Assembly: GCA_000934665.2 (NCBI GenBank)
Contig: KZ538145.1
Coordinates: 1-64,000 of the forward strand
From: Catajapyx aquilonaris
Lineage: Eukaryota
Length of the DNA: 64,000 bases
Direction: 5' to 3'
Part shown: positions 4,036 to 42,086 of the stretch, piece by piece
How the letters are laid out: each line of letters begins with the position of its first letter
Position numbering within the stretch: position 1 is the first letter of the stretch
Program-made: the position numbers and the translations under genes
Notes under the pieces: model-generated
What the model was told of the DNA's origin: nothing
The model's input: the letters and a program-made list of their open reading frames with translations, nothing else
Databases searched by the model: none

Positions 4036-4069
4036 ACTTACCTAGAAGGAAGAAAAAAGGGGTTTAGTA
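4036..4069 (-). other. Candidate recursive splice site (ratchet point), junction 4042|4041
   Basis: The minus strand reads TACTAAACCCCTTTTTTCTTCCTTCTAG|GTAAGT. It has a branch-like TACTAA, 18 consecutive pyrimidines and TAG, immediately followed by a perfect donor. It is on the same strand as the CELF exon. Confidence 0.7.
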
Positions 4070-7000
4070 TACAGTCACATTTCATGCAGAGAACTAAATT
4101 ATGATGAATATCAGTTCATGACATGCCATTGCGACTATGACATCTTCTGTATGAAATATCTTCTCATAAGAAAATGCTACCATCTACACACACAAAACTG
4201 AATGCATCACCACACCCAATGTGTTGTGGGTGACAAATTCGACTGTTATCACAATATTTTTCAACAAATCCCATGGTATGCGATGTCTGGTGTGATACGT
4301 GCATTTTGAGCATCCCTACCATATACACCACGCAGCAGGCACAAAACCTGAAAGTATGGTAGTGTATTCTCAGAAAGCGTAGGAGCGTCAAGAGGGACTT
4401 TTAGAGTCCGTAAGCCCAAGAGTCCTCCTCCTACCCCTCCCCCGAAAAAAAAAGAGGAGCGGAATGCCCGTTTTGCCAGTGTAAATTCCCACAGCCATGG
4501 TCCTAATCGGCTTCCGAGACGAGGCACCAAAAGTGTTTCCCTTCTTTTCGCAGCAGCAGAAGAAGAGGTAGGTAGGCAGGTCGGGGCAGGGAGGGTCCAT
4601 GCCTGCTGCTTTTCGTCCCGGAACGATCTTCATAAGATGGCATGAGGATACATTAGCGTCGGATCCAATGGGCCCTCTGACTTACACCTATTACCGTTCC
4701 GCCTGCTCCACTTCTTAAATTACCCAAAAGGATTGCCCTTCTTCCTGCTCCTACCGGGTCTAGCTTTTTGGCTACAGATAGGCTCCCTATATATCCCCCG
4801 GATTGTGAAATTGGAAAAGCGCTAGTCGCTCGGCCAGTCGCTGGCGGCAGCCGGGGAAATCATCACTAGGCTGGGGGAAGGTGGGGGACATGGGTTGGAG
4901 GGAAAGGGGGGGAGGCCGGAATTAATCGCTGGTAATCACCGCGCTTATTGCACAAAGTTGAGAAAATCCCTGCCTCCCCATGTTAGGGCCATTTGGAGAG
5001 TGGCCGCGGGGGGCCAGACACCACCGCTGATGGGAATACTAGCGGGACGATAGACTGCATTGTTAAGCAGGTTTGGATAATAACCGGCGCACGACTTGCA
5101 ATACTTCATTCACATGGGGGAGGGAGGGGGACGCTCAACGAGGGAGGGATTCAATGCAGCTTGGCCCCCAGGCACTCGCCACAATCACTATGTGTATGTC
5201 GTTCGTGAACTGCACATTAAAGCCCCTGTCTTCCCCAATATCACATATTCGGATTAAATATTCGCTCTAAAAATGAGCGCCTGCATACTTTGATACGAGG
5301 GGAGGGTGTCCACCTATGTGCCCATACAAATAAATTGATGCGATTATCTCAGTAATGGTGCCGGATAATTTCATCTTAGAATTCGTCCGATTTGGCACCA
5401 CATTTCCACAAGCCACGAATAGTAATGCAGCAACTGAGGGTTGGAGGGCGCCTTGAGACAGCCCTTGAACAGCTTTTTCTCCGCGTGTCTGCTGTCAGAT
5501 GAATAAGGAGGGGGGTCGCCGCCGCAACACTATTTGGACCTTCCGCGCATAAAGAATGGCGACACCGCCATCATTCTTCCCCACGCAATTTCTCACAATT
5601 TGTCGCACAAAATATGTATGGGACAAGGTCGGATCCCTAGGTATGGCCCCTTTGCCCTATTCATTTTTGTTATGGATTCCAAACAGGGTGATTCGATCGG
5701 GTGGGCTAGCAGAATACACACAAGTCAAGCCCCGCCCTCATCACACAAAGGGTGTTTATGTAACACGGTAAGTGTGTTCCTTCAGGGCAGGTCACTTTGA
5801 TGGATCGATCTCGCCTGATAAGCCGACTGCTCAGCATATGGGCACATTTGTATATCCTAACCCCTAGACACCTGAAGGGCACTCTAATCAAGATATGGCG
5901 AGTCGTCAACCGGTGTTTCTGTGCACATGTATGAGACTTGGCGGTTGGGATGTCTGTCCATCATTCGCGGGTCAGCAAGCGGCAGAGTGAGGCCTGTGAA
6001 GCGAGTCCATTCGCATGGAAATCCTCAAATAAAACAGATCCTTGCGGCTCTAGCAGCCTTCACCTCGCAGCTGCCGGCCTCAAAATTTATCGGACTAGCG
6101 GGTGGGACGGGGGAGGGAGCGGGGAGGGTCTCGACCGCGCCTGACAAAAGGCCACCCACATTCCAGGACTTTTTGCCAGCCGAATACCTAAGCTTTGCTC
6201 CGCTCTGCTTCACGGACAACACGGGGATAACAGCCTTTATTCTATTTGGCAGCAACCCCCCGCGCCCCCTTCACTGGCACCGCAAATAATCCTGCTGCTC
6301 CTGCTGCTAACTCCTCTCTTTACAACTACCCACAAACGTTTCATCGCTTCGCACCTCTCAGGATTTTCAACCTCTACATCTGATCACACATAAAAGAGCA
6401 TCTCGTTGTAGACCACGTCTCTGGTATTTCTACAAAGGGGGGCGGCTAGCCGGCTACTTAAAATACTGTCACAAAGCATGTTTCATCACTACGATGGCAC
6501 CTCACTTTTAGTTCATACGGGCTGGACCAAAAATGGCGGCATCCACACGGATAAGCCTACTCATGCGCATACCTAATGGAAATCGCCGCGGTTACAGTAC
6601 CGATAAAAATAATGATGGCGATGACAGCTTGAGTTGGGAGTAACAAAGTTTTCCTCAGTATATATTTGCTCCAGCAAAAGTCCGTCGGAGTAAAAAACCT
6701 GTGGGTGGAGGCGGGTGGGGGGGTGGAATCAATCGGCCCTCGTCGAGCTCGTTACAGCGTGGCCCTGCCGGTGTCATACTTAATCAAGTGCGCTTAATAG
6801 CCGGCAGTAAATCGCGATTACCCAGAGACCTGCGCCGCCGTTACTGCCTACGAAACAGTGTCGCTTAGTTCCAGCGCCAAGCATAAAAGTTCTCCCCTAG
6901 TCGCGCTTTTTTTTTTTTATCCTGCTGCGTTCTTATGACAACTCAAACTTTATTCGCGAATTGCAGTTGGTGCGGGAAAATTAAAGTCTTCGGGCTTGGG

Positions 7001-8021
7001 GATCGGACCTATAGGTTTAAAAAAAAATAAAAAAGCAGGTGTGAGAAGGAGGCAGCGACGAAGACTTGGGTTGCAGCAGCTCAGAGCTCGCCTTTTTATG
7101 TGAGCCGAGAGAGGAATAAGCAGAGAAAGAATTCTTCCGAGAAGATCTGAAAATCCGTCCCTAAGGGATGCGAAACGAGGCTGGCTGGATAGCTCGCTTG
7201 CATGCAGCTAGACCAGACCGGACTAAAATAGGGTTAGGCTAGACTAGTGCTAGACTGTCGTAGAATGGACGTCAACCTGCACTTTTCCCGCGCACCTTAG
7301 GCCCTACCTATATATTCTACCCCCGAGCCGCCTGCCCCTGGAGACATATATGTTACACAAGACATGAATTTTGTTTTTAAAAATTTCATAGCTGTAAATG
7401 TTCATAAAATTTTTGAAATAGCCAACGCACACTTACTAAACAATGTTGTATTACGACAGCGCAATTTTATTTTCGTTCATACAACTGACGCATGTCTTCA
7501 CTGATTTAGTCGGTTCCAGGCTTTCGTTTCATGCTAGTTTGAAATTGAGTATAGTAGACGCTCTGTGGGTTCAACCCATAATAGCAGTCGGCAATCGAAA
7601 ACGGCTGAAGTTATAAGACTTTCTTTTGAGGATCTCATACGTTAGTTTGCCTGACAGCCTCGACTTCTTATTCAACAGCCACTTTTCCCTCTAATGAGTC
7701 AGATTTCATCAGAAAGTGATTCTATTCCGCAGTTGCCGGGCATTGGGAAAGTGGAAAGCGTTTCTTGGAGAGGGAAAGGTTGGTCCCAAACCCAAAGTCT
7801 CCTTTTCGCCTTCTAGGTACCAAAGTTAGGGGCGGGAATAATCAAAGTGGCATCCAGAAGGCCATTTCCCTGCCTGCTTTTTTTTTTCTTTCTTTCCACC
7901 CTTCTTTCCCTGTGTCGGCGGCGGCAAACCAAGCCAACAATCCAGCCAACCCCCCCTTGCAAATCACAGTCCTGGCATCATTTGCATGATTCGATTCCTT
8001 CTCCCCTCCAAACCCCCCCCC

Positions 8022-8055
8022 NNNNNNNNNNNNNNNNNNNNNNNNNNNNNNNNNN
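8022..8055. other. Assembly gap between poly-C and poly-G tracts
   Basis: A run of N is flanked by a C tract on the left and a G tract on the right. Confidence 0.95.
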
Positions 8056-9248
8056 GGGGGGGGAACCTGCCTTGCCTCTTTCCTTTCCTTTCCTTCCTTC
8101 CCATTTGGGCGGCAAATCCCAACGCCATGTGGCGCCATGCTCAAATGCTCCCTCCTTCTCCTCCTTTCCCTATCTCCCCAAACCATAGTAGATCCCCGCA
8201 GCAGCCTTTCCCTTCCCCGCTTTATTCTCTCGCACCTCTCTAAGCCGCACAACTTCTCCGCCAATCCCACTCGCCAATTTCATTGCCAAAGGCTCACTCT
8301 GCAGAATGTGGGGGTTTTGGGTTGGATTCAAGCCGTTTCAAATCCTACCTACATGTCACATTTGTTTTGTCACAACCTGTGCGGTATGTCATTATGTCGA
8401 TACTCCGGGGGGGGGNGGGGGGGAGGAGGATAAAAATCGAGTGAGGGTTAAGAGGTAGGTCATCATTAATCTGGCGTGTTACACGCGTTTTGTGCTCGCG
8501 TAGTCGAGAAAATGCATATTTGATCACAGCAGGGCAACTAAAAATGCCTCGTACCTGTGTAACTTAATTTGATTCGTTCCCCGTAAACAGGTTGTTTTCT
8601 GCATCGATGGTCAGTTTTATTTATTAAATTATTTACGGGTCCTTGAGGCTCAATCGAAGCCAGCGTTACGCTAAACATAGGTATATACACGTTATTAAAT
8701 GAGGCCACAGTTGAGGGCACTGATGGAGTGATTATCCCTCATTACAAAATCATAATTATCAGCGAAGGTCACTCGAACTCAGGCACAAGTGGGGGGGGGG
8801 GGGGNGGGGGGGGAGTCCAAACTAATAGGGGGCGCATGCGCACAATTCGGTTCCGGAAGAAGCTTTTTGGCCACCTCCTAACCGGATGATTGGATGGTCA
8901 ATCGAGTCGAGGTGACATGGCCGCCTCCTGCTAACGGCCCCATAAGCCATCCAAGTCAACTGGTGTAAGATAGGAAATGTCCAAGCCTAGCTTGCACGTA
9001 GGAGCAACCCGTGTCAAAAGGGCCATTTCATACAGCCAGTACGCAGCAATGATGTTTCCGCAGCAGGTCGTCGGGTGGCGTCCATTGCATACATACAATA
9101 CAAGGTCTGATAAGTGGATTCGGGTGAAGGAACAAGGCGGAAATTGGATCCTGTATCGCGTTAGGGCCCAGGGAAGAAGGACGAGGGGACTTTGTAGCGC
9201 TCCCAAAGCACTTTTCCTGCGACTCACTATCTGGGGGGGGGGGGGGGG

Positions 9249-9294
9249 NNNNNNNNNNNNNNNNNNNNNNNNNNNNNNNNNNNNNNNNNNNNNN
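9249..9294. other. Assembly gap within a poly-G tract
   Basis: A run of N is flanked by G homopolymers. Confidence 0.95.
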
Positions 9295-12200
9295 GGGGGC
9301 TAGGCTTCAACTACTCGGGGCCTCTGCTGCTGTATCTGCAACTCTGGAGCACACTCCCATAGGAGCCAGACACTCCTCGCTTCTTCCCAAATCAAATCCT
9401 CCGACACTCACTCACTCAGCCAAAACCCATGGAAAAGTTTCCCCTCCATTGCACATGTCCACCTTCCCATCATTATTAGCAGCATCTGCTCGATTCGCAT
9501 GCAGGCGACGCTGTTTTGCAACTTTTTTTTTTTTCGGAAGGATTGGACCAGCCTACAGGACTCAAAATGAACTTTTTGGAGGGGTGGTAGAATAGGACAG
9601 GAAAAAAAAGTGCTACCTCTCACCTTCTCACCTGTCAATTACCGGACTTTCAGTTGGGTGGCCAACCATTCATCATCTAGTAATAAGCAGGACGGGAAGT
9701 TGGCGACTGGCAGCAACCAATTTATAATTCTGCCTGCTTGTACTGTACAGCAACTATCCCTACNCCCCCCCCGGAAAAGAATAGTGCAAAGCAGGCGAAA
9801 GTCCTGCAGACTCCGTCCTTGTCACGACCAGTAGATGGGAAAGTTGGTGAATCTAAATCTAATTTCTTGTTCCAATACATATCAGGTGACGTATACACTG
9901 ACGTCGCATCCTAATCGGCTTTGAGGGTATCAGTCACCTTTCATAACAACGATACACTTGGCATGTCCCTGGTTGTATAAGTTCGGGGTCCTGAAATAGA
10001 CAAGGGCATTGGGCCTTGCGTCACTGTCAGCCAAAACCCAATTCATGACGCACCGACGGAAGATAATGAGTTAGAAGCAGGTACGAAGCTGGTGCTGCAT
10101 CCCATCAGCGCAGCCACCCACCGCTGGCAAATTATTTACCACAGGCAAATCTGCCGGCGTGAAAGTGGATGGACTGGGGATGGATGCAGATGGTCTGGAC
10201 CAACCCACATCAGCTTTGCAGTGACGAGGCAATTTCAAACCCCCCCTCCCCCCTCCCCCCTATACTTATTACATCTCTAGCACTGTGCTTTTAACTCCCG
10301 TTCGGATTAGCCGCACAAGCCGCATGTATGTAATCTTCTTGCCAAGAGGCCTGCCCGACACTTGTTGTGGCTGAACTCATTCCATGGACCACTTTCAGGT
10401 TTTTGGTCCCCCGAGGGAAAGGGTTAAAAAAGTGAGAAAGTTGCTTTCATATCAACAGGCAATCGTGTGTTTTACAGCCACCAGACTTACAGACGTTGAA
10501 TCATTATTACGACCACAACCGGACTCTTACTCAAAGTCTCATAAAATGCGCATCTGGACCCTTTCCCGGAAAGACGTGATATATGTGTAAACATATTGAA
10601 TTCAAACCTCCAACTACATCAATCTTTTCCTGCTTTCTGGCTGCCATAATGTCTTCTGATGGCCGGTAGTCCATGCGTACCACCGCATATACCAAATCTG
10701 TCGTGTTTAATTACAGCTTTTAGAACAAACTTGCACGCCAGTTGATTCTTGACATCCTTCTTTCTGACTCGGCTCAGTCTGGAGAGCAGCGGTCCATAGT
10801 CAAAATCCTGCTGCACATGCATTTATAACCTTGTTGGAAGTGACTTGAACCATGAATCCAGCAAATGGAGAAATCGCGTCTTCTTATCAGTCACGCGTGC
10901 AAGCCCACCCCCAAGCCCAGCCCCATTCCACAAAAAAAAAACATGCATGCATGCATCCTTGCATCCGTCCATCCATGGATCCAGCAGCCCAACATCTAGC
11001 TCAGTAGCTCTACACATTTCCCCGGAGAGATTATCCGTTTCAAGTGACTTGCTCAAATCCCACGTCCAAACGAGCGCATTTCGCGCTAAATTAGCCGCGC
11101 TCGCGCATCATTTTTATAACCCGGACCACGCCTTAGGCCCAACCGAACTAACTGCAAAGTGCGCTAATACGGACCCTGGGCCAACTTGCGCCCTGGGCCA
11201 CAACCAGGCGCCACTTGGCCGGAAATCATCCGATATTCTAGCACGCCCAATTGACGCTGGATAACTACACGATCGCAATTTTTGACGGAACTGTGCTGCG
11301 TTCACGAAACACAACAATGCTGGATTCAGTTTCCATATAAATAAATAAAAAATTGGGTCGAGGATGGCCAAACTACCCTCATAATGGCCAAATTTATGGG
11401 CCCGGAAACTACAGTTTTGACGCTGAGTTATTGCACTTGTGGCTAGGTTCGGGTAAGGAACGGCCTAATTAAGGGTGGATGCTCCGTCTTGAAACCAGCA
11501 TAACGATCAGTCCGGATTAGTGATGGATTGTAAACGCCTGCCTGATTGGCCTTTACAGAATAACAGCGCAAAAGCACGGCAATGTGATGACAGTAGGTCT
11601 GGCAGCAAACCTGTTTAGGTACATCGTACATGACTGCCAGCCCTGAAGCCCACCCACGTGACCAGGGCCCCATCATTCTGTCCACGTCCCTTCCTACCCA
11701 AACATTTATGTTACCGTAGGCCTAGAGGCAATTAATCGCGCGACTCAATTCGCATTACCCACCCCACCCACCCACCCATGCACCCATACCCCATTCCGCA
11801 AGTGGAGGCTGCAGGCTAAGCAGGTGCACACGTGTGCTGGAAACCCTGCATGCTATATATTCACTCGAATTTCACTATGCTAGTAGGTACCAAATTACTC
11901 CTAATATTGTAAATTATAAAATAATTATAATTAAAATGTTAATAGAAATGGGGCTTGCATGCAAATGTTTCATTCCGCATAAAGATTAACCCACTTCCAG
12001 GACAGCGGGTTACTGAACAGTACACGATGATAATGAACAAAAGGATTCCGTCCTGACCCGCAAAATTCCTCAAATATCGGCCCAGCCAGCAGGTTTCGAG
12101 CCGATGCTTTAAACCCGGTGCAAAAACAAATTCGATAGCATTAAATCTATTCCCTTTCGCTAACTTGTCGGTCAGTAGGCCTACTAATTTAATCAAGGTC

Positions 12201-15047
12201 CGAGTCTATTGGATGAAAGCAAGCACAGCCCTTTCAGTGGGCAATAGCATGATGCCGCCACCCATTTGGAAAACCTAATTTAATTACACTATAGGCCTAT
12301 GTTTGGAATTCTGCAATATTTGGCAATTGTTACCAGTGCGTTCCATGCTGGCCGAGCGCATATAAAACATGGGGCGTATATACAACGGGGGTGGGTGGGC
12401 TGATACTCGTGCCATTCGTGTGCATGTTCCAGGCGACTGCATCCGTTGTTTTTCCTTCAGACCCAATGTTTCGGAATACTGGCTACTGTGAATCTGCCGC
12501 CATCTCTATCGCCGAACGAGCAGGAAAACGACTGCTGATCCAATAAGGGCAAATATGCAATCCCTTCCATCCCACCCTGGAATCCAATCCCAGTAATAAC
12601 TCGAAGACACTTTTCCTCCACAAAATGTACCAAAAACGAAGGAAAAAGTTGCACGAATCGCTACAAACGCACTCGAGATGATTGGTTGTCGGAAGAGCCG
12701 CCGGCATTACCGTCCCGTTACAACCGGTACGGAAAAAAAACTTGCACGGCAGGTACCCCCCCCCCCCCCCCNTTCAAATACACCTTTCCACTTTTACTTT
12801 CAGTAGGCCAAGCTCAACACGAATTGCCTTGCTCTCTACCACTTTTTTGCAGACTCCAAACCTCGCCCCCAATTAGAATTCCTTTTCTTTTGATCTTATT
12901 TCTGGGTTGAATACACCTCTCACACCTAATACCTGGAAGTAAATGTTCGTTTGGAAATTTTTATATTTAAAAAAAATGCATATTTTCACATATTAAATGT
13001 CTCAAGGCCAGTGTGTGAGACATATCATGCCTGAATTCACCACCTGGGGGGGTTCAACCTTTATACGTCTCCTGGAAGGTGAAAAAAGGCGTGAATGCAA
13101 AAGAGCTGGCAGAGAGAACATGGCAGCATCGGAGGCTGAATGAAAGTGGCAGTTGGGCCTAAGCGGATTCCGACTCACTTGGGGAAAAGCATTGGCGGCA
13201 GCCCGGGAGGAAAATCTGCACAGGCAGTTGGCAAGACACCCCCCCCACCCCCCCCACCCCCCATCTTAGCAAAGAGCCTTCAATTCAGACGCTGCCGACT
13301 CTTGCCACCTTGTGTTACACACCCCCGCTTAATATATCCAGAAAATCCTCAGGAGTAAAATCGGTCTTTGTGGTGCCCGCTCCGGAAAAGAAGAAGGAGA
13401 AAAAAAAAACTGGGTCGGAAATGTACAAAAAAGATTGTGCCGAGGTTTTTCCCGTGGGTGCAACAAGATATTAATTTGACGGCGTGTGATGGAGCCAGTG
13501 ATTCCAAGCGGAAGGTGAATCTGGGAGCCTTCCATCTCCAACCAAGCCAGTCCAATTCCAGGCCCCTAACAAGTAAACCGATGTGCAATTTGGCATAACA
13601 AGCAACCCAGAGAGGGAGCAGTGAATAAGCCCTCTTAGTCCCGGTTTTCCGCCGGGTCCCAGCGATTCATCTCCACCGGCGCGATAAGGATCCCCCATTC
13701 CCTAACACCGCTTTGGCACAATGTTCCTCCAGCGGCACAAGCTACGGCACAAACCCCTACAGAAAAAAAAAATCGCGATTATTCATTTTCTCTTATCTTC
13801 CTGAGGATGACCCCTAATCAAATCGGCCGACTCATTTCTGGTCAAATGATCTGCAATGTAATCAACGTCTCGGTAATCATTACCCCAGCCCTTTTGCTCA
13901 GCTTCCCTGCCAGTAGTAATTATTCTCGGAGCTAACGTAGCGAACCCTGGCCAAATGATTGGAACATTAAAAATATAATAAAATCCAGACTAGCAGCCAT
14001 GCGCAAAATTAAGTTTGGATCAAAAAAATGCTGGCGGGGAGAGGGAAGGTTGGGGTCCAAAAAGTGTATAACTGGCCGCGTTCAACAAGTGAATTATTAG
14101 TCGCCCAGGTGAAGAGCACTCATCTCCAATCTTCCGGATGCACAAGCCTAATGAACAGAGGCCCGGAATTATTCTCCGGCGAAGCTTGCACACTTACATT
14201 ATGGCACCCACACACCCTTGCCATTAAATTTTAATTAAAACAGCTTTTCATATCAAAATGTCATTAATTACAAAATTAAGGTCATAAAACCCTCTTTCCG
14301 AGAAACCTTTCGACAAAGGCAACGAAGCAGGTATGCAGTAATTGGTGTAATTTGGATCCGGGCAGGTGCCCTGCTTGCTGCAGCATCTAGACCAGGGTTG
14401 GATAGAGGGCTGGCGTGTATAATACACGACAATGGCAATAACAATGCAGGCATGATGCTCATCAGTGCGGCTCGCACCCAGACCGATGCGTATGTGAGCC
14501 ACACCACATGCATGGATGACCAGGAGGGGAAATGAACACGGACCTGTTGCACCGGAATCAATGACACATTACGTATGATAGAGTACATCCACACGTTACA
14601 TTCATAATTGTTTGCAATTATATTGCAGTCAGAGTTAAGCTTCCAAGGCTGCTGCGTCCCATTGTCGACAATTAGCGGCCCACATGTGCAGTGTGCCGTA
14701 TGCTAACGCCTCATTTTTCAAGCTTACCTGGACGGGTCGGAATCTAGGGAACGCCTATTCAGTTTGGCCATCCGAGAATAAAACGAGCATTTTATGTGCT
14801 CACTAAGGGCCGGTTGCATCAACTAGGTAAACCCAGAACAAGTGACTGATCCGTGTTATTCATACAGGATTAATTACGTGTTCAGTATTTGCCATCCTTG
14901 ATGCAACCCAGCGTAAACCATTTTTAACATGTCTTCTCGAGCCCAAATTATCTCCAAAATATGCATCTGTCTGTACTAACAATTTAAATAAATCATTTTT
15001 AAATATCAGATCAGATGTCGGTGTATCTAAACATATAGCCATAGTTA

Positions 15048-15216
15048 CGATCACGGTCTTAGAAGGAGAGGTCGGGAAACTCGCCGCCATTTTGCGTTCC
15101 GTTACTCATTCCCGCCGTGGCGCTGACTGGAGGTGGCCATGATGTGACCTGGATCGTGAACATCTCCATATTGCGGCCATCTTGGTATACGCTATCGGTA
15201 GCTAAGACCGTGATCG
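15048..15216. mobile_element. Small inverted-repeat element (possible MITE remnant)
   Basis: A perfect 15-bp inverted repeat, CGATCACGGTCTTAG (15048-15062) / CTAAGACCGTGATCG (15202-15216), encloses GCCGCCATTTT and GCGGCCATCTT motifs. There is no clear TSD. Confidence 0.45.
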
Positions 15217-15217
15217 G

Positions 15218-15271
15218 TAGTAATCGGGAGGGGGGTCGCTGATAAACCTAGTAATCGGGAGGAGGGTCGCT
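15218..15271 (+). repeat. Direct repeat, 2 x 23 bp (period 31)
   Basis: TAGTAATCGGGAGGGGGGTCGCT (15218-15240) and TAGTAATCGGGAGGAGGGTCGCT (15249-15271) are 22/23 identical. Confidence 0.85.
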
Positions 15272-17109: not shown

Positions 17110-17149
17110 AACGAACGAACGAACGAACGAACGAACGAACGAACGAACG
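17110..17149 (+). repeat. Microsatellite (AACG)10
   Basis: Perfect tetranucleotide array. Confidence 0.97.
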
Positions 17150-19820: not shown

Positions 19821-19999
19821 AGCGGCGTTTACATGTGAGCGATTTGATGGCGCGATGAAATCGCCGAGCGATAACAACGCTGAGTAACCAGTATTATATT
19901 ATATTATATTATATATTTATTTAAACCCTTAAAACCTCAAACAATATTGGTTACGTCGCTCCGCTTCGCTCGTCAAATCGCTCATATGTAAACGCACCT
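19821..19999. mobile_element. PIF/Harbinger (Tourist-like) MITE, 179 bp
   Basis: The ends read TAA|AGCGGCGTTTACATGTGAGCGATTTGA and TCAAATCGCTCATATGTAAACGCACCT|TAA, with a 3-bp TAA TSD. An inner inverted repeat GTAACCAGTATT/AATATTGGTTAC surrounds an (ATATT)n core. Confidence 0.8.
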
Positions 20000-25700: not shown

Positions 25701-25852
25701 CACCCACTCCCCCCCCCCTCTCTCCCCCCTCCCCAATTTGCCCAACTTCCCTTCCTTCCTGCAATCACCAACTCTACTCTGGCTGCTTACTACCACTGCA
25801 CACCACCAGTCACGAAACATGTTGCATCAACTCACAAAAAATTCTGCAAAAG

Positions 25853-28900: not shown

Positions 28901-30992
28901 AATGTGGCGTAGATACGCATAGGACTATCCCGGGACAGAGGAAATGAGGTCGGCAGGACAACCGGTGTGCACGCGACCAACCGCTTCTTTCAATTGCTGC
29001 TGGCAAAACCCAGTGGGTCGTGCATCATCCCTAGGATTTGGGGGGGGGGGGGACTTGAAGCATATACCCANTCGGCCTCTTCTGCAGAATAGGCCAGAGC
29101 TCTCTCTATCCTCGTGTTTATATCCCCGGCTCTCAAAATAGACCGCCACGTGCAATTCTTCTTCAACCAAGCCAGAACCCCCCTCTTGATTTTTAACCAA
29201 GGTTGCGTCTTAGGTGGGTGAGAATTGCTAATGAATTCTTGCGTGGAAAATTCAGATGCCAGATAAGCTTTTCCAACCTCAGGCAAGCATTGTAAGAGCC
29301 TCGATATGGCCATTTTCAGGGGGGGTTGAAAGTGGGAGCGTCTTCGGGGATTGGAACCGACAAGCCTGGTTGGAACATGGCCACCGCCAAGGTGCTGCTG
29401 CCGCTTCTTGCTTTTGCTGCCTGTGCCATCCCCGACCTTAGGATATTGATTGCTGCGCCGAATGGAACCAGGAGACGAGGTGGAGAAGAAGACTAGGGGG
29501 GGAAAAAAACGAGGACCCACATTCCTGACTCTCAGACCAAAAGAGGATAAGGACACATCATTTCCATCTAAATATCTTTTGCATTTCCCCCACACACGTG
29601 TAACAAATTTTCAACATATAGCCCACCTTCCTCATGGGTGGTTGGGTATCGGGTTATGGTAGAGGGCGACGCCACTCATATTTGGAGTCAGAAGCATAAA
29701 GGCACCCCACCAGAAAAGCTCCACGACATTCTATTCCGTCCTCGCAGCTATAAAAGTACAATCGTGGAGCAGCAGAAAGCACACCGCAATATTCCTCCCC
29801 AAGCCAGAAAAGGACGACTTTCTCGCCCCAATTGGCATTTTTCAGAGAGAGAGAGAGAGGGGGGGGGGGGGNGGGGGGGGGGGGGGGGGGTAACTTCGTC
29901 ACGCAGCTGCCCCATTCCCCTCCCCTCCTTCCCCCAACCCACCCACCATATTATTAAATTACGCGAAAGGACGGGAAAACCCAGAGAAGGGTGGGGGAGT
30001 TGCGAATTGGCAGCACCAGAAATAACGAAATGGTGTTTTCTAGCTCACCAATGGGCGCCTGAAACACTAAAAAAAAACGTGGCTCCCAAAATTATTCCCG
30101 AGTCTTGTTTCCCCCGGATATTTCTGCCAATATTCCAATCTACCAGGTAGCTGGTTCAATTCAATATTCATCGACGGCATCGCGCTTTGATTAGGCCGCA
30201 CCCCCCCCCCCNCCCCCTCGAAACACATACGGATTCCCACAATGGAAACCCTAGTTTCTCATTAACCTGCTGGATTCCACAGTCTTCGCCCTTCCCAATT
30301 ACGCCAGCTGGGTCGAAAAAAGGAACCCAGCCCTGCACCCAAAAGACCACTAATTGCTGCTACACTGCAGCAATGGGCGTCGAGCGAAAAAAAAGGATCA
30401 AAAATGGTGGTTGTGCCAGCCAGACAACCCAACCTAAACCAAGAAATGGGGATAATTATAGCGTAATGTGTTTCTAGCAAATGGGCTAGTGTTAAGAATG
30501 CCTCGATGCATGTGGGCAGGGGGGGGGGGGGGGTNGGGGGGGGGGGGTCTGTCATGGGTTGCCAACTACTGTAGATATAGATATAATCAGCAGCCGAAAC
30601 GTAACTACTCTCAAAATGAGTTACAATTTTTTTTATAGATCGAACAGTTGAAACAGATCCTTCTGATGCTTGCAGGCCACTAGCCTTTTGCTGACTCCAT
30701 CACCGCGTTTGGGGTGACACAGTATTTGCTGACACACACGAAACCCTGTACACGTCCAGCTGCTATACCGCAATTGGCTATATGCTCTCAAGCGTTCAAC
30801 TGACAGTCGCTGGCCTCAGAAAACCCCCAGAAGTGCTGCTACTGGCAGTATTATTCACTGTTGAAAAGTGGTTTGCGAAACAATTGGATCTTTTTTGTTT
30901 GCCCCATTGGAGGGAACGAAGCCCTTTTTAGGGGGATGGATTACCACAATTTTTTCTTACGAATTTTTCTTTCGCATTTTTCTCTCCGGTTC

Positions 30993-31320
30993 AGGGATAA
31001 GGATAGGGATTTGTGTGGAGGGGACACTGGTGCAATGTTGGGGGTCGTGTGCAGTCCCCCTGGGGGTCAGGTTTCAAGACAACAGCCTGTAGGTGCGGGT
31101 CAGATACTCCCCGCCGACACCGCACCTCCCCAAGGCTGGGTCAAGGAAAGGAAAGGAAGGGGGCTGTGGCCTATTAATTACAGAAGCGACCCCGGAATTT
31201 TCCTGGGGGGACCGTGGGAAACCCCAGAAAACCACGATCAGGATCGCCGGCCCCGAGACTCGAACCCAGGACATCACGATTAGCAGTCGGACGCCTTGTC
31301 ATTCCACCAACCTGCTTCGG
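30993..31320 (-). mobile_element. tRNA-derived SINE, apparently full length (~328 bp)
   Basis: On the minus strand there is an A-box TGGTGGAATGAC (31298-31309) and a B-box GGTTCGAGTCT (31256-31266). The body contains GTGGTTTTCTGGGGTTTCCC..., followed by a stem-loop-rich 3' part and an (ATCCYT)-type tandem tail near 30993-31012. A second copy of the body lies at 33122. Confidence 0.8.
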
Positions 31321-33121
31321 TAACAATCGGTAGCCTGCAGAATAAGAACAATGCCTTTTTATATAGATTGGGAACAACAAAGAGCGAGGTGAAATCTCTT
31401 AATTCTTTCATATACTTATAACTAGATACCAGGATTGTCGCATGATCATTGTTTTTATAGAAGCTTTGTATTCCAACAATGGAAGATACTACAGCCAAAT
31501 AATACCCTAAGTACAGATAATCCCACACTAATGTTACCTACCAAATGACCCAGAAGATGAATAAAGTGAGCACATTTCTGGCAAAAACCAGCATCATCCT
31601 GAGTTCGTTCCTCCCTTCCCCTCCTTCCCCCGAATATGATTCCCTTCCAGTGTAAATAACCGGAGAAAACAAACTGGAAGCAATCTCCTAGAAGAGTGCC
31701 AAGTCCTCTCATCCGCCCCGCGGGCTGGGTATTATGGTCCCGACGAATTAAAGCAAACACGGCCATCCTCTAGAAAAATGTCGGCACCGATAAGCAGGTT
31801 AGCCCCCAAAGCTGACTGTCAAAACTTGGCCTCTTATCCTAATGTAAAGCTTCTCTCCCCGCCATGTAGTTGCCCATCCTCCAATATAAAATAGAGCGCA
31901 TCTCTCACATTGGAGGGGCTGAGAATGGATGCGATGAACCTGCAAATCAATCAATGGCCTTCCTGGGGAAGCCCAATTACCAAGATTGCTTATCTGGGCC
32001 ATCTAGCAACGGAATTTTATGGGATGGAATAGGTTGTGTTGTGCATGAAGCGCCACCGATTAGCCACCACTATCGCTTCCTGCCTCTATCAGCAATAAAT
32101 CCTACCGATAAACAGGAGATAACCTCCCGCAAAACCGACACTGTATAGTACTAGAGTGTACAACGCACGCCGCTATGATTTACAAGCTCGCAAAATTATC
32201 ATCCGGGTTTTGGGGCCTGCCAGCGCCGCAGGAATTTATGCTAAACCTTACCCTTCGACTGGGTTGCAAGAAAACCTGGCCGAAAAACCTGGCCAGGAAA
32301 AACAACCGAGCTGATTGATGGATGTTACACTATATCTGTATTATATCGGCCTGGCAGTGTTATTCTATTCAGCACGTTGCAAGAAACGCCCACCGTCGAC
32401 TGCAATTTACAACGCCGCTAATCAAATAAGTGGACTAACCGCCTCCGAACTCCCCCCTCATCCACCCTTTTCCTCCAGACAAATTGTACAAGTTCATTTC
32501 CTGAAAAGGAACTCGGCGTCGGCTGCTGATTTAGCGAAGAAAATTCCGGGGCCATAAATCCGCTCCTTGCAACTCCAGGCCCCCCCACCTCTGCTGCCCA
32601 ACTTGTGTCCCGACACCTTAAAAATGACTGTCTAAATTGAGTTATGTGGAGAAGCCGGCCTTTTAGTAAGAAAACCCCCCCTGTACCCCCCCCCCCCTTA
32701 ACTGCCACCTTTCTAGTGGCGGAGGAGACAAATTCGCAAATGCTCTCTCCGCCACGATCATTCCTTAACTTAGGATCAACTTGCTCTACAGAACCTTCCT
32801 TGTAATCACAGGATGCACCACCAATAGCCTGGATACCCATTATTAACCTCAGGTTCCAGCAAAATTGCAATTCCAGCAAAAGGATTCAAGATGGCGGCGG
32901 TCATAGACATAGCCGACTCGACTCAAACGGGATGGAAATTTTCGTTGTTTCTCTGACGCCCGCACTAGATGGCGATGGATGGAGACCTGGTGTGGCAACA
33001 TGTGTATTTATCTATCTATTTATTTTATTTATATTACCCCACTGCACTGGGAGAACCGGCGCTCCATTTACCACCATTTTACCACTCATTTTTTTTTGAA
33101 ATTTTCTTCACACATGGATGA

Positions 33122-33210
33122 GGCCAAGGGAAGGAAGGAAGCGGCTATGGCCTATTGTACGGAAGCGATCCCAGAATTATCCTGGGGGGACCATGGAAAA
33201 CCACGGTCAG
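33122..33210 (-). mobile_element. Headless SINE fragment, same family as 30993-31320
   Basis: ggccaagggaaggaaggaagcggctatggcctattgtacggaagcgatcccagaattatcctggggggaccatggaaaaccacggtcag aligns with 31139-31241. Confidence 0.8.
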
Positions 33211-36200
33211 CAACCTGTGTATTATTGAACCACGACAATGACTGTGGGGTCAGGAGAGACGACCTAAGGAGGTCAGATTTATCACTGAGTTTTGAAAAAG
33301 AAGCGGTTGTGCCATTTACACAATAGCTTGCTGATAGGAGCTCCATTAGTGTAATAGATTGCATTATCGAGACTTTAAGCACACATGACCAACCCAATTC
33401 CTGACATATCTATGTGCGCTAAGTTAACACACCTACTTCAGTGCGTCCTTCATGTCTCAAAATGGATTGGAGGGTATCGGATTAGCCGGAGTGCGTCGTG
33501 CTCTCATTCACTTACGTACATATTAAGCAATCTATTTTTAAGACACTTTTTGGGAGATTACTCTCTCCAGAATGATTAATAGCCTACTGCCAATACATGC
33601 CAAAACATGTCTCATCAAAATGATAGCGCCCGTACTATACATAGAAGAATATTATGGAGAGAGCCAAGTTGCACCAAAATGATAACACTTAGAAATAACT
33701 CACAAGTTGGATAATACAGGAAGATTTCCTCCCTTAGAAATAATATGCGCACAAAGTTATTATTCTATGCCTGGCAATGAGTCTCGCTTACAGTGAAAAA
33801 ACTGATTAGAAAGTTCAAGTTTGGTGAATCAACTTCTGCAGTGGTATTCACCCTGCTGAGTAGTAGTCAAAATATTAGCCTAGCGGAAACATTGTGGGCA
33901 TGCAACTTTACACTGCCACAGTAGCATGTTTGATGTGCAGCAAGGAAAAGATAACAATAGTCATTCTGGGAAATGGAATGGTATTATGAGAACTCCCCAG
34001 AGGCCGCAAGTCAATAGTAGCCTACATGAGTCATTCAAAGCTTTTGACGTCCAACTCATTGTTGTGGTTTGAGCAAGTTTAGGCAGTCAGGCCAACATGC
34101 GAACACTACAAAAAAAAAAAATAGTTGAATAACCCCCAACCATAGCTTCCTAGAGATGACTTGCAATATTTAGGAGTTTGTCAGGTTAGGGCCAGCCAGC
34201 GCTGCATCGGCTTTTTGAGACCCGTACATGTTCGGTCCATCCATCAAAGTCTGCAGAAATCTGGAAGCTGGTCGAAGCAGCTTGCTTTGCCAGCACTGGT
34301 GTTTCAGGCAGGCTTAAGAGATGACACCCCCATGCACTGCACGTGTACTTGGCAGCCCCCATACTCAGATGCCGCATCGGGTGGGTGTTCCCAAGAAAAC
34401 TGAACACTTCCTTGCGAAAACCTGCTGGACCTATATACCCAAAGCCCGGGGAGCAAAAATCCATGTGGCGGGCCCTTAAATTATGTCAAGATGCGAGGAT
34501 AATGCTGCGGAAATGCTTTACTACGGAAGCGTGATGGGGAACTTAACCGTGGCTCAAGGAAAGTGCTTCTGCGGCGATGCTTCTTACCCTCTAGAGACCT
34601 CCCCCCAAAAAAGTGTACACACAACCGGATCATGTCACATACTGAATTGTTCGCGTGCAATCCGTCTGCCCACTTTTTATTTTTCATTTGGGCTTTATGA
34701 CCGCTGGGTATTGCCGCGATGAATAATAAGCCGCGCGTTTATTTGAAGTTTTTACCCTCCCACCCCCCCACCTCCTCTCTCTATTTTTTTGGGTCCTCCC
34801 CCCCCCCCCCCCCCCCCCCNGGCCCACAGCAATTCATCCCAGTGCAATTTACAGCGGCCGCACGCTCAAAATAATGCCCCGGTCGGCGGTCGGTTGTAAA
34901 CAAGCATATGACTCTTCCTTTGAAATCGAATTCGCGCTATCGTGACTGCTGCAAATGCGTTCGCATGCAGAAATGAGAGTCCCACAACGCATCATTGCCT
35001 TTCGCGAAAATCTGCAATTTCCCTCCCACCCAACCCCTGGCCACCATTATCTATCGCAAAAAAAAACGCGTTTCATTTGCAGCCATAAACGCTGCTTAGG
35101 TTTCAATCAAACGCATCGGCATTTCTTTTCCTAGGGATGGAACCCGAGCAATGTGTGTTATTAAGCGGCATGCCACCTCTTTTTTTTCATATATTATGAC
35201 ACACGACCCACTTGCTATTTTCCATTTCGCCGGTCAACCCTTGGCTCTCAAAGTGGTACAAAATGCGGAATTTAAACTGCCACAATGCTTTTGTTCCGCC
35301 ATAAATTAATCCGGACTGCATGCATTCCAGATTAATTTTTTCCGTCAGAACGCGCTGGATTGTTCAAACTAATAAAACGGTGTGGTATTTGTGTATTGTA
35401 GTAGTTAGTGTCTCGCCTTGACTTTGGCCCAGATTTGGGTCCGGCCCCAATTAACCCTGGAGGCGTCCTAAGGAGCAGAAGCGAGCAGAAGCCATCTGCA
35501 CGAGTTCCAAAACCTTCCGGACGTGACTGAGAGTGCGTTCCAAGCCCTGCAAATATAATGGAGCTGCTTATTAAGGGTGGCGGCATTCCAGTTTGGCAAA
35601 ATCTCATCATCTGATGCCAGTCCACTCAAGCCAACCCTTTTGACCCTACCTATCTTTTCTTGGCGTTCTAAGAAGGCGCTAAAAAACAAACAGAAACCAA
35701 AAGTGCCTGGGGGGGGGGGGGNGGGGGGGACCATTAGGCCTAACTTTCCCTCAGCATTGGCATGGATTTTTGTCCCCTTTGTTGAGCAAACACTCCTTTA
35801 TTGTGTGGCTTCCCTCGATGAATCCATCGGGCGGCCTTACTCGCCTAGGCTTCACCTCGGACAATACCTTATTGTGCTTTAATCCCAGTCGATAATGTGA
35901 AGTGGAGGTCGTCACACAGAACAAAGGACAGCTCTCATAAATTATTCCGACAATCGATCTAGGGATCGATCGCAACCCGGTGGTTGCAGCCGACAACTAA
36001 ACAAACGCTCAAAGAAGTAAACAAATATCGGATGGGGGGGATATCATTCAGGGATCTTCAACGGACACATATTCGGGCATGACAGTAATAGGCTCTAATG
36101 ACGGGACAGTGGGGAACAAAATGTGATTTTGAAGTATTTGAACATGCGTGTAGTGGGGATAGATAGTCATCGTTCATTTAGGGGTAGTCGCTTAATACAC

Positions 36201-37615
36201 ACGTTTACGCAAAATTGAATAGGCCCGGTTGTTTTTGTGTGCTGATGATCAACCTGATCGAATTAACGCCAAATGTCTCATGTTTGTAGCTATTTCGAGT
36301 CAACCTTTTTTTTCTATTTGCCCCAGGAAGCGTAACAACTTTCATGTAACTTGGATTCCTTTTAAGGAAAGTAAATACTCTCCTGTTCTGATTTTGGACT
36401 AACTACATATTACCTTTCAAAGATGATCCTGGATGAAAGGATAAGAAAGTAAGTATGGGAACCTGGTGTGTATAGGGAGGAAAAACTGGGGCAATCGCAG
36501 GCTAGAAGTAAATAGAGCCTCAACTCCAAAATTAGTCCCTTTAATGAGCCTGTGCGACTACGAGTTCTGGCAACGACTTGCCGGATGTGTTCCTTACTCA
36601 CACCCCTAAAACTACCAGGTCCAATTAGTTTAAAGCCTGTCTTACTGCCAGACCACAAAAATACAACTAGTGACAAATTTTCAGTCACACATAACATGAA
36701 TGACAATAGATGGCCACTAGCAAACTTTGATTTCATACATAATTCCCTAGATAATTCCATAGCGGAACCCACATTGATCACATGAAACATTCAACAATTC
36801 TTGGAAACGACAGTATTTGATGGGGGCTGGTAATGATTATTGGCGTGTAATGGGATGAGATGGCAAACTACCCAGAAAAGCCGACCGACATGTATAGCCT
36901 ATATTTTTTTGTCTGCAAATACCCAGGCCATAAATCCGGATCTAATTTATAAATCTTTCATATTACACAGGACAGGCATCACATGTCATTTATAAACAGT
37001 GTTTGGCAAATTGTACTCGAACCAACCGCATCTTTCTTTCTTGACGTAACGCACAATGAAGCGTTCGCAAATGCAATTACTGTACTGATTTGAAAAACAG
37101 TGTGAATTGTGAATGAGCCGAGCTGGCTGTCACAGTTACACGTTTGGCGATTCGAATATTTCAGAGCCCTGTAGGGAGAGACTGGCAGTACGTATCCCCT
37201 TCCCTGCAGTACACTGTGTATGTGGATATATGAATGATTTGCGGGCACTGATCTCCATTGGCAAAAGCCATCGACGTTTAGGTCCGGAAAATAACGTCAT
37301 TAACTCGTCGAATTCAGCGAGCGAGGACCCCCTCCCCTACCCACTACCCCCTCCCCAACTTAGGCTACTAACAAAGCGGCGCATTTGGCGGTTGCAAATG
37401 CCAGAAAGGCCGTCGATTTCATTACGTTACTGTTTGCAATTACAACCGGTGAACGGGTCATGACTAGAATGCAATTTGAATACATCACGACTCGATAGTG
37501 TCTAATTTCCAGGCTCGCTGTTTAAATAAAATTAAACGCCGACGGGATTGCGAATTTTAACGAGGAAATGAACAGCACTTGTCTTTTTCCGAATGTCGCT
37601 CGACACCCAAAGCAT

Positions 37616-37663
37616 TTCCTTCCTTCCTTCCTTCCTTCCTTCCTTCCTTCCTTCCTTCCTTCC
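37616..37663 (+). repeat. Microsatellite (TTCC)12
   Basis: Perfect array. Confidence 0.97.
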
Positions 37664-40600
37664 TACATTCCGTCCTCGTGTATAGTCCCAACCCTGCATG
37701 TATCAGCTGGCATCACAGCACCAGCTTCCTCCCACGAATAAATTAAATTCCCCGACTGGCATTTACCTACTTTCCCAAGCTGCTAGCTGTCTCTATGCCC
37801 ACCTTCACCACCCCCTACCACCACCCATCAGCATTAAAAAACGACAAAGAGCCCTGGTGCCACCGGTTTGCTTCATTTTGACGGTCCCGGATGGAAATTT
37901 TGGGCTAACTTTTTCTCAACCATCCGCCGCATCCCCACTTTTCCTAGGGGGGTTTATGCATTAGTAAGTACAGTACAGCGTACTGCACCTTGCACAATCA
38001 CCGAGGCTAGTCAAACAAGGCCATCATCACAGAAAACGTCAATTGTACTGTCTCATTACGCTAGTTGCAATTCTGACTCGGAACACACAAAAAAAGGACG
38101 TTCGATTTCCATTTCATTACGTGAATCGATGTATAGGACGGCTTTTTTTTTGCTGGGTCCTAGGAACAGGTTTCAAACGATAAGTCTCCTTTGATTGGGC
38201 CAATCGCCTTACTTGACTCCCCCTTAGACAAGAAGATAAGTTCGAGACGAGTAGGGCCTGGTAGTTACTGCAGGCTGCAGCACCAAACATCGATAGTCAT
38301 TTTTAACGTGGAGTTGACTCAAGAAGCATGAAACTCGCATTAAATGAGGGTATTGCAGAAAGAATCATTGCAAAAGTGATAAGTTATCGGATTCGTACAT
38401 CATGCAAATGGCAGCTCTCAGAGTCAATTACTGTTTGTATGTAGTTCGTGCCAGTCTGAAAATTCAATTTAAGACCTGCAAAATATATCTTTTGCCCTGT
38501 TGAAAACGACCCTTATGCTAACAAATGGTGGGCCCTGATACATTATATAGGGGCACAATACATGCACCTGCCCTTGAATAAACCAACAGCCTACACCCAA
38601 CCACATAAACAAACCCGAGCACTCCAAAGACAATAAGGCGGGTGCGTACATAGGTCATAATGCAGTTAGGGATATTCATGGCTTAGCAGGGGTAGCCATC
38701 TCTTATAGGTTATCCAGGCGCCAAAACAAATCACTTCCGGCCATGGAGCGCGAACGAGAGGCTTCAGGGCAAGCAGATTCGCAGCATCAAGGCCGGAAAG
38801 GAATCCTTTCTGGACCTGACGTTTCCAACATGACAATCTTGGCATGAGAAATGAAGGGCTGTCATAAAACGTTCCGGGCGCCGCTCCAAATGGTATTGCC
38901 GCCCACTCATGTGAGATATACCCAGAGCTGGAAAAATAACCACGGCTGTCCGCTTCCATCTGCTCTTTTCTAAAGCCCCTCCTTGCTTCCACCCCCTCTC
39001 TTCAATATACTAGACTGCTGCCATAAGTCATGTATAGCCAACCACACATTTCCCAGCCAGCTCCTTACGGTTAGGCCACACAACAAACGGGGGGGTTCAA
39101 ATCAATGCTAGGTCCGGGTTTGTCGATAAGCCAGGTCCCCACTGGTTTTCCCCCTAAAAAATAGAGTCTACTGTACACGCGCGTTCCATTGTGATTGATT
39201 TGTCGCTGGATTTCAGCGGCGATGATAGATAGCCGGCGCTGACACTGCGAATGCCAACCCCTGCAGTTAACCTGTAAATCAACAGCCGCTTCCCATCCCC
39301 CCAACACTCCGGTTTTTTTTTTTGTGTGTATGTGTGTCTGCATATGCTTTTCCCACTCCTTTTTTTCCCCCAACATGTGTCAGCTAGTACTATCGGATAG
39401 CCCCGTAGTATTAATATTTTCCGCCCATTCGTTGCACGTCTGTTGATAACATCCTTTTCGCACACGCTGTACCACGGACGATGACACAACCGTTTTAATA
39501 GCATCAACACGTTATTATCTGTATATAATTTGTTAAACCACTAATGAGTTAAATATAACTTACTGATTGCAGCATATTACGGATATAACAATATCCAAAT
39601 TATGATGGACATATTCTTGGGCTGCATCCAATGATGGCTGATTTTGGAATTGTTTTCCCAGCTGGATCTAGACGCAACAGCCAGAGTGTCCCGGGTCTGT
39701 GTAGCTCTCTCTTTCGGACGAATGGCGTGAGTGAATGAGCGCAGTGAAGTTATCCCTGGGCCATTGTAAAAGGCCTTAAAGTGGCTAGGCTGGCGCGTGG
39801 ACTCCATTGTTGAGCTCCCCTTTGTCCTCTAACTTCTCCTTCTCCCCCAGCAGCCAAATTTCGGTCTCTTATATTGGGTCGGACGTCGGAATTATCCCGC
39901 GGACAAGCATCCATTGGCGCAGGAGGAGGAGGTGAAGAGAGCCTCGTTTGTCAATCCAGAAGGAACCAGGAAGAACGAGCCCAAAGGGAATCAAAACTCG
40001 CAATCAGGATCTTCTTCCCTTTTTCCCCCCCCCCCCCTCCCACCATCTCCACCACCTTCTCTCTCCTTCAACTTCCTCTCTGCACACACACCGTAGATAC
40101 ACAGGATGAGGTCCCCAAGATTGGTCACGGGGACCGGCCAAAAGGGAATACATTTCAGACTCAATTCCGCAACACAGAGCATGTGCTGAGCTCCAGAAAA
40201 TCCTGGCCATTAAATGCCCGAGATGTCCGAAAGAGTCGGGAAAGTTTGCAAGTTATTAGGGGACGGGCCGGGCTTAAGATTAAACTCGAAACCTGGTGTG
40301 TTGCAGATAGATTACAAAGTCCGCGACTTTTTTTTTATTATATCCCCGCATGGGCGCTTAATTAAAGTTATGGATGGCATGCAGGGAGTCGTCATTAGGA
40401 GAAAAGACCGGCGTTGAAATAAAGGCTGGAGAGCCAGACTCCGATGCAACTTGGTGTGTTTCATTTCAGAATTCCTATTATAGGAGAGGACATTGTTGGG
40501 AGGGAGGCCGCCTGCACAGAGGCGTAAATCTTCTCCTAACCCCTTTATGCATGATCGTCTATTGTGGAAAATTTTCCGCCGCATCCTAATTCCACTTTCC

Positions 40601-40972
40601 GGTCATTACCCGTCCTTTCTTTTGTCCCCTCTTAAGCCTTTAATTGCACTGTAGGATTACCTGCTCCTTTTCCTCCCCCCTTTAAAAAAAATACAGCAAT
40701 AAGGTCGCAACAACTTTGAAGCGCGTTGCTCAAGCAGTGAATCTCCAGGTATAAAAATGCTGCAGAAAAGGCGTCACCTGGTCCGTAATTACTCATTAGA
40801 ATAAAACCTTGGTGAAAAAACTCCAAGTTGGTTTTATAAAAAACCTCGAGTTGGTAAAAAAGAAAGTGGAGAGCTCCACTTCCTTCTGCTACGCCAACCG
40901 ACTAAGTATAAGTAGTTGCAAGTAATTTCCACAACAGGCAGAGCTTCATAATAGCAGGCGAGCCCTGCTTTT

Positions 40973-40978
<6 letters not shown>

Positions 40979-41032
<54 letters not shown>
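40979..41032 (+). repeat. Microsatellite (CT)27
   Basis: Perfect dinucleotide array. Confidence 0.97.
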
Positions 41033-41039
<7 letters not shown>

Positions 41040-41988
41040 GGCTATCTCTCCCTGAACATTAAGTTCATTACATCACTTGGGAAGTTTCACACACCGGCTG
41101 CGCTTAAAAGCGGAATAGTGTAAGGTCGATAGGAAACTAGAGGCAGTTGGACCGCAACGGAATGAATCCCTTCCAAAAGCCAGTGCCATCAAATGTCCAA
41201 AAGTGCTCTCCGGCAGCCAACGCCTTTTGCTGCTCTTCCTTCCTTTAACGCCAAACAAGGATTTTTCCCTAATCACACCAGAAGGAAACCTCGTTTTCCT
41301 CCGGCTTCGGAAAAGCAGCCTGGCCCCTGCCATCCACTCATCCCTGCATCACAAAAGAGACACTTGGGTTGCGCGGTATCCAGGAGGAACTTTCCCAACG
41401 TCTTATTACTAGGAGGCCTGCAGAGAGTGGGGACTGTTGAGTATCCCTGAGCTTAACTGTTTGAAAACTGTTTTTATTGCAAAACTTTTGAGCAACCTTG
41501 TGTGAAAACAGAGGCACAAAGATAATTCCTGCTCATGTGCCCGAAATCTCATCTGTCACGTAGATGAACGGACAGGTCTTGCATCCAGCCTGAGGATAGG
41601 CAAGCATTAGACAGATCCGAATTCGCAGGTTAGAGCTGTTTTAGTGCCCAGGAAGACAGCACTCTGGTGTCCCGTCTCCTGAGCATAATCGGTGATAAAC
41701 GAAGACAAGCGTGAGCTACGACTTGCAGCCGTTGACACCATCACACGCTGCAATAAAGCCCCATTGCCCAACCTGCACATCTCAACCTTCCTCTATCTGC
41801 AGCTGCCCACTAAACTCGCCTATCATTTCTATCCCGCTGCGGGCAAGCTTTGGGGGGAAAAAACTGGTGCCTTTGCCATACCGCTAACTGAGCTGCATTA
41901 GAGTGTATGATAGCGCTGGTCTTAATAGAATCCAAGTGGACCGCGCGATAAGGTGTGTTTTTTTTTCCAGGGAGGAAATGCATCCTAC

Positions 41989-42061
41989 CTGTTAGCACGG
42001 TGGGTAGCCAGGTATAACCCGCGAGGATGATAGACACACACCCCACCAAGTTCTCACTCAC
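41989..42061 (-). other. Putative 73-nt cryptic RS-exon downstream of the 42061 ratchet point
   Basis: The segment runs from the acceptor at 42062 to a donor-like CAG|GTAGGA (forward tcctac, 41983-41988). Confidence 0.4.
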
Positions 42062-42086
42062 CTGCAAAGAGAGAATGACGTTAGAA
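42056..42086 (-). other. Candidate recursive splice site (ratchet point), junction 42062|42061
   Basis: The minus strand reads TTCTAACGTCATTCTCTCTTTGCAG|GTGAGT. It has a CTAAC branch motif (A at -20), a pyrimidine tract and CAG abutting a perfect donor, with no AG between branch and acceptor. Confidence 0.7.

Follow-up and report, generated by a model that had tools for sequence, protein, structure and literature searches.

Two candidate recursive-splicing ratchet points flanking a coding-looking exon in a minus-strand locus of Catajapyx aquilonaris

The DNA of Catajapyx aquilonaris analyzed here comprises positions 1 to 64,000 of contig KZ538145.1 (assembly GCA_000934665.2), and this whole stretch of 64,000 nucleotides (nt) is referred to as the window. 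Its content in guanine and cytosine (GC) is approximately 47%. The sole recognizable and coding-looking frame of the window, as judged from the GC at the third codon position, belongs to an exon of the minus strand. On the same strand, two motifs in which a splice acceptor directly precedes a consensus donor are located downstream (site 1) and upstream (site 2) of this exon. Both are candidate ratchet points, that is, sites through which a long intron would be removed stepwise by recursive splicing. The coordinates of all features are given in table 1.

The acceptor of the exon reads ...ttgtccttcctcccccgcag/G (a slash marks the cut throughout), with its AG at 22469-22468, and the donor reads CAA/GTAAGT, where 21913 is the final base of the exon and 21912 the first G of the intron. 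The exon begins at 22467, one base away from the 22468 implied by a preliminary description of the window. The acceptor is strong and thus implies the existence of an upstream exon. In the frame from 22214 to 21915, the GC at codon positions 1, 2, and 3 is 0.53, 0.47, and 0.74, respectively. This excess at the third position is matched by none of the 144 open frames of at least 90 amino acids (aa) in the window (null 0.001 ± 0.062), and the frame is very likely a genuine coding sequence. Its product (minus strand, 21915-22214) has 100 aa and is of low complexity, with a His run and stretches rich in Asn and Ser.

The surroundings of the exon show two further traits. The 500 nt upstream of its acceptor (22469-22968) have a GC of 0.57, and a (TGGG)n array occupies 22931-22968. 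The exon may be directly preceded by an internal promoter, which would shift the assignment of site 2 to introns. In the other direction, 2.2-2.5 kilobases (kb) downstream of the exon donor, the minus strand carries two more very strong donor-like sites, AAG/GTGAGT (9/9 matches to the consensus) and AGG/GTGAGT, at 19416 and 19694, without an adjoining acceptor. These could be alternative donors of unrecognized exons, or decoys.

The gene had been named CELF/Bruno in the preliminary description, a label that found no support, as neither a homologue of the 100-aa product nor an RRM-like motif in the window was detected. In detail, word-seeded homology searches (with longer lengths, near lengths, and residues 1-45) returned no relative of the product, and the ESM Atlas gave no usable match. 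A phmmer search against 1.84 billion representative proteins produced two matches only, to proteins of 7924 and 2846 aa; both were rejected as low-complexity matches, with 17 matched stretches each in very long proteins. The reach of all these product searches is limited, since homology is hard to detect for a low-complexity N-terminal exon. Regular expressions for RNP-1 and RNP-2 found no RRM-like motif in the six frames of the window, and RRM exons could lie outside it. The end of the exon (...SPI(K), phase 2) would be compatible with the start of the CELF RRM1, IK/MFVGQ, although this compatibility is not a test. Among the recursive sites that Pai et al. 2018 tabulated for S2 cells, neither the name bru nor three FBgn numbers presumed to denote bruno genes were found, which is of little weight, since these genes may be silent in S2 cells. 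The CELF label is best dropped pending a transcript or a downstream exon. Given that no homologue was detected among the representative proteins, the product may represent an N-terminus that evolves fast or is confined to one taxon.

Direct reading of the minus strand confirmed the positions of the two motifs, each composed of a branch sequence, a pyrimidine tract, and YAG/GTRAGT, as had been claimed before. Both match an acceptor juxtaposed to a consensus donor. The pyrimidine run of site 1 has no interruption and counts 18/18 in an 18-nt tract, with TT at -5/-6 (4046, 4047) and the branch A of its branch-like sequence at approximately -23. Site 2 has 14/18 pyrimidines, TT at -5/-6 (42066, 42067), and a branch consensus with the A at -20, and it is one of only two minus-strand acceptors that combine tract, TT, and yTRAy. 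The donor halves were graded by their matches to MAG/GTRAGT and by the energy of the duplex with the 11-nt 5′ end of U1. The donor of site 2 matches at 9/9 positions and pairs with U1 at -13.0 kcal/mol, ranking first among the 3767 GTs of the minus strand, and that of site 1 pairs at -12.4 kcal/mol and ranks third.

Table 1. Features of the minus strand around the two candidate ratchet points (positions in the window)
Feature	Coordinates	Strand	Details
Candidate ratchet point 1 (site 1)	4036..4069	minus	TACTAAA (4069-4063), 19-nt pyrimidine run, TAG (4044-4042), GTAAGT (4041-4036); AG 4043-4042, donor G 4041, cut 4042/4041
Candidate ratchet point 2 (site 2)	42056..42086	minus	TTCTAAC (42086-42080), pyrimidine-rich tract, CAG (42064-42062), GTGAGT (42061-42056); AG 42063-42062, donor G 42061, cut 42062/42061
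Exon	21913..22467	minus	555 nt; 5′ untranslated region, ATG 22214-22212, 100 2/3 codons; ends in phase 2
Putative first intron segment, exon to site 1	4042..21912	minus	17,871 nt, from donor and site coordinates
Putative intron segment, site 2 donor to exon acceptor	22468..42061	minus	19,594 nt, from site and acceptor coordinates
Candidate cryptic recursive-splicing exon (RS-exon) of site 2	41983..42061	minus	73 nt (42061-41989), donor CAG/GTAGGA, first intron G at 41988
Third bare TAG/GTAAGT, not a candidate	47255..47275 (cut 47261/47260)	minus	10/18 pyrimidines, AA at -5/-6

Both sites are single copy in the window, where only chance matches of at most 18 nt occur elsewhere. A repeat origin was ruled out, since neither site is spanned by a repeat family, and no element-like open frame or repeat was found at their flanks. 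Exact 25-mers of both sites had no match among metagenome contigs, a collection unlikely to contain relatives of the source animal, so that this result does not bear on conservation.

The bare 9-mer YAGGTRAGT is expected 0.65-1.17 times per strand, in agreement with the earlier rough figure of about one per strand in 64 kb. It is found three times in the minus strand and never in the plus strand. The third minus-strand copy lies 5.2 kb upstream of site 2 and, given its poor tract, is probably a chance match. When a tract of at least 14/18 pyrimidines is added, the expectation falls to 0.017-0.067 per strand, against two observed on the minus strand, and none of 300 simulations at each of the Markov orders 1, 3, and 5 contained two or more tract-bearing sites. 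A second estimate was based on the 20 strong acceptors of the minus strand (strong meaning a tract plus TT at -6/-5) and on the frequency of GTRAGT (34 per 64,000), and gave approximately 0.01 expected juxtapositions; strong donor-like sites of the same strand amount to 31. A relaxed scan for YAG/GT, with weaker donors permitted and at least 13/18 pyrimidines, again yielded no minus-strand sites other than sites 1 and 2; the plus strand gave a single weak site (1027). The observation of two such sites is not chance-like.

A similar picture emerges from published backgrounds. In Table 2 of Shepard et al. 2009 (PMC2773006), the antisense density of ratchet-point (RP) sites in the long introns of 13 animals is 0-0.12 per 100 kb, being 0 in the mosquito and 0.066-0.122 in the other 12 species. 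This corresponds to at most ~0.08 per 64-kb window. In the fly, the same table gives 2.196 sense against 0.101 antisense RP-sites per 100 kb, and a 4- to >10-fold sense-strand enrichment is reported there for mosquito, bee, beetle, and sea urchin. The density of the present locus is 2 per ~63 kb of the sense strand and 0 in the antisense strand.

The distances of 17.9 kb downstream of the exon donor and 19.6 kb upstream of its acceptor, as given in the preliminary description, correspond to the two intron segments of table 1. Both introns run beyond the window; the one is at least 21.9 kb long and the other at least 41.5 kb, if the region from 42 to 64 kb holds no exon. The window has a strand asymmetry from end to end, as if one minus-strand transcription unit spanned the 64 kb: on the minus strand, G exceeds C in 29 of the 32 2-kb bins and T exceeds A in 23 of the 32 (on the plus strand, C over G and A over T), and G exceeds C across nearly all of the segment between the exon and site 1. 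In mammals, it is the sense strand of transcribed regions that shows such an excess of G over C and of T over A, a relation that is not established for the source organism. A transcription start upstream of 42 kb would fit this window-wide asymmetry.

Apart from the exon, the window is unusually clean and unique non-coding sequence. The Pfam search covered the 150 longest stop-free frames (at least 89 aa) out of 536 frames of at least 55 aa, a scope that small exons could escape; it included both intron segments and found no family at the curated cutoff and no transposon-like frame. PRIMA1 (18.1 bits against a cutoff of 38.6) and Autoind_bind (16.1 against 23) stayed below their curated cutoffs and were read as chance. 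At the gathering thresholds of Rfam, there were no matches in the window. Two microsatellites are located downstream of site 2, (CT)33 at 40974-41039 (1.0 kb away) and (TTCC)15 at 37616-37676 (4.4 kb away), which on the minus strand are the purine-rich (AG)n and (GGAA)n. The window also contains 99 N in 15 runs (8022-8055, 9249-9294, 19521-19527, and 12 single positions), and the placement of several single Ns in stretches translating as runs of G or P suggests unresolved homopolymer runs of G or C.

Both sites are probably intronic ratchet points of the Drosophila type, located in a long gene of the minus strand. Recursive splicing is favored because rarity, the TT dinucleotide, donor strength, branch distance, spacing, strand, and density agree. 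At the level of sequence, the ratchet-point reading of the preliminary description agrees with the consensus, with the TT dinucleotide and the distance of the branch motif, and with the strand, spacing, and rarity of the sites; its CELF/Bruno label is not supported.

The motifs are shown, as are their rarity, strand, and spacing and the coding look of the exon; that the sites are used, in which order they act, and how far both introns extend is inferred, as follows. For site 1, splicing would first join the exon end at 21913 to the AG at 4042 with the removal of 17.9 kb. The last bases of the exon would then stand directly before GTAAGT (4041-4036) and a donor would be regenerated, which in a second step would be spliced to the next acceptor, past the start of the window. 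At site 2, an upstream exon, probably of the 5′ untranslated region, would be joined to the AG at 42062, and the regenerated GTGAGT would be spliced to the acceptor at 22468 with the removal of 19.6 kb. The recognition of site 2 would probably be aided by the 73-nt cryptic exon ending at the weaker donor at 41988; this donor would be outcompeted by that of the ratchet point and leave no trace in the mRNA.

Several points weigh against this interpretation. The case for the use of the sites is made from sequence motifs, and a functional ratchet point is defined by signs in the RNA (junction reads, saw-tooth coverage, and lariats) and by conservation. The rarity test was framed after the sites had already been picked, although the consensus itself had been published earlier. 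In vertebrates, the sense-strand enrichment of the motif is only 0.9- to 1.5-fold according to PMC2773006, so that a match there would often be due to chance. The branch motif of site 1 ends in A (CTAAA) and is one base off the strict yTRAy, and the branch A of site 2 is slightly outside the Drosophila range of -36 to -21. No convincing donor follows site 1 within ~100 nt, and those at +127 and +162 are weak (-5.7 and -6.9). Finally, the gene model consists of one exon with no homologues, with the far ends of the introns beyond the window, and the term giant intron expresses a lower bound that is contingent on there being no unrecognized exons.

Recursive splicing with RS-exons is reportedly found in vertebrates as well, in work attributed to Sibley in 2015. 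In the model described by Joseph et al. (PMC8605326), a ratchet point is recognized via a short cryptic exon with a weaker donor, and such cryptic RS-exons break the reading frame. Site 2 resembles this model: the donor at +73 has 7/9 consensus matches and a U1 pairing of -10.7 kcal/mol, against -13.0 kcal/mol at the ratchet-point donor, and the stretch 42061-41989 would fit donor competition. Site 1 resembles it in that its downstream sequence would break the frame at once if included, as the retained sequence would read AA/G TAA, an immediate stop. Its weak donors at +127 and +162 would give an exon longer than the ~50 nt described in PMC8605326.

The same donor at +73 opens another explanation, in which an ordinary expressed exon (a cassette or poison exon, or one of an alternative 5′ untranslated region) starts by coincidence with GTRAGT at one of the sites or at both; for instance, site 2 would be a 73-nt exon (42061-41989) that is included in some mRNAs and does not act solely as a zero-length stepping stone. 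The pairing of CAG/GTAGGA with U1 is fairly strong, and precedents exist in Drosophila, where Ubx has microexons, the RS-exons that are expressed number fewer than 50 (PMC8605326), and the 'nonsense' exon 4a of bruno-3 is located at presumed recursive sites (PMC2767349). However, the stronger donor of the ratchet point favors skipping in the published model, and at site 1 there is no good donor within 100 nt and inclusion would lead directly to a stop. This explanation is unlikely; moreover, it overlaps mechanistically with recursive splicing and does not exclude it.

It is also rather improbable that the splice signals are real but the gene model is wrong. In that case, the sites would come from a different transcript of the minus strand, for example a non-coding RNA or the isoform of an alternative promoter, or would be remnants of a lost exon or of an inserted element with splice sites of its own, and they would not subdivide the introns flanking the exon. 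The exon without a homologue and the position of both far intron ends outside the window are compatible with such a situation, and an internal promoter in the GC-rich (0.57) 500 nt upstream of the exon would leave site 2 outside the intron of that isoform. Against it, the strong acceptor of the exon implies an upstream exon, the strand asymmetry is continuous over the whole window, and neither site has flanking sequence that recurs in the window or holds a repeat or an element-like open frame.

Least probable is that the motifs are unselected and unused splice-like sequence: such sequence is common in the minus strand (strong donor-like sites number 31 there, and strong acceptor-like ones 20), the conditions of the search were set after the sites had been seen, and the bare motif at 47261/47260 shows that the 9-mer alone arises by chance, but two sites were observed against 0.01-0.07 expected, both on the coding strand with no counterpart on the opposite one, both with TT and with donor halves in the top 3 of 3767, and the published antisense background would provide at most ~0.08 per window (PMC2773006).

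If the ratchet points are used, they would add another case in which long introns are removed in steps, beyond the species where this has been demonstrated, and the fly signature (tract, TT, strong donor, and steps of ~18 kb) would be enough to find such sites in raw sequence. The gain is incremental, because the mechanism is already well worked out in flies and the sense-strand enrichment in invertebrates has been in print since 2009 (PMC2773006). A more specific proposal, that a taxon-restricted first coding exon is flanked outside flies by near-symmetric ratchet points (17.9 and 19.6 kb) with TT at -5/-6, is tentative and rather doubtful. If it held, the complete zero-length code of the Drosophila type, with its ~18-kb step, would predate and reach beyond the model species in which it has been shown, and a genome sequence would suffice to read it.

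The architecture of the locus can be compared with that of Drosophila bruno-3, which has a first exon of untranslated region only, a start codon in exon 2, and introns of tens of kb (PMC2767349). In a 36-kb intron of this gene there are pairs of splice sites that the authors think serve recursive splicing, and the 'nonsense' exon 4a arises at such presumed sites (PMC2767349). This similarity of architecture is compatible with the label but not diagnostic, and nothing was found that marks the present locus as a bruno/CELF gene. The RP-sites predicted by Shepard et al. 2009 (PMC2773006) share with the sites described here the type of evidence, i.e., the enrichment of the motif in the sense against the antisense strand, as well as a similar density; that work is genome-wide and statistical, whereas here a single locus carries one site on each side of its exon, in symmetric positions. 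In a locust study, one site was predicted from the fly matrix and was tested by immunoprecipitation of U2AF65 (PMC8892266).

The closest resemblance is to the zero-nucleotide ratchet points of Drosophila, whose description is said to go back to Hatton in 1998 and Burnette in 2005. Their use in the fly is shown by junction reads, lariats, and saw-tooth patterns, whereas the sites of the present locus are known from their sequence. Most recursive lariats of the fly have branch points at -36 to -21 (Duff et al., 10.1101/006163), a range that does not include the branch A of site 2. The consensus of ratchet points, as quoted in PMC2773006, is found in both sites (TAG/GTAAGT with 18/18 and CAG/GTGAGT with 14/18 pyrimidines). 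A set of 47 motif rows from S1 Table in Pai et al. 2018, which gives validated fly sites, has the same shape as the sites described here, and several of these rows include CTCTTTGCAGGTGAGT, as does site 2. Of the 197 Drosophila ratchet points, 196 have TT at -5/-6, a dinucleotide found there in 43.76% of all introns (Duff et al., 10.1101/006163); sites 1 and 2 follow this rule and the third motif at 47261 has AA. Prominent pyrimidine tracts and strong GTRAGT donors are likewise common to the fly sites and to those of Catajapyx aquilonaris, and the present sites, with the strand taken from the coding-looking exon, would also be located like those of the fly in the sense strand of long introns. 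Fly introns with ratchet points measure 11.3-132.7 kb, and their recursive segments have a mean of 17,953 ± 9,039 nt and a median of 16,368 nt (Duff et al., 10.1101/006163). The two segments of the present locus, with 17,871 and 19,594 nt, are similar in length to the ~18 kb of the fly.

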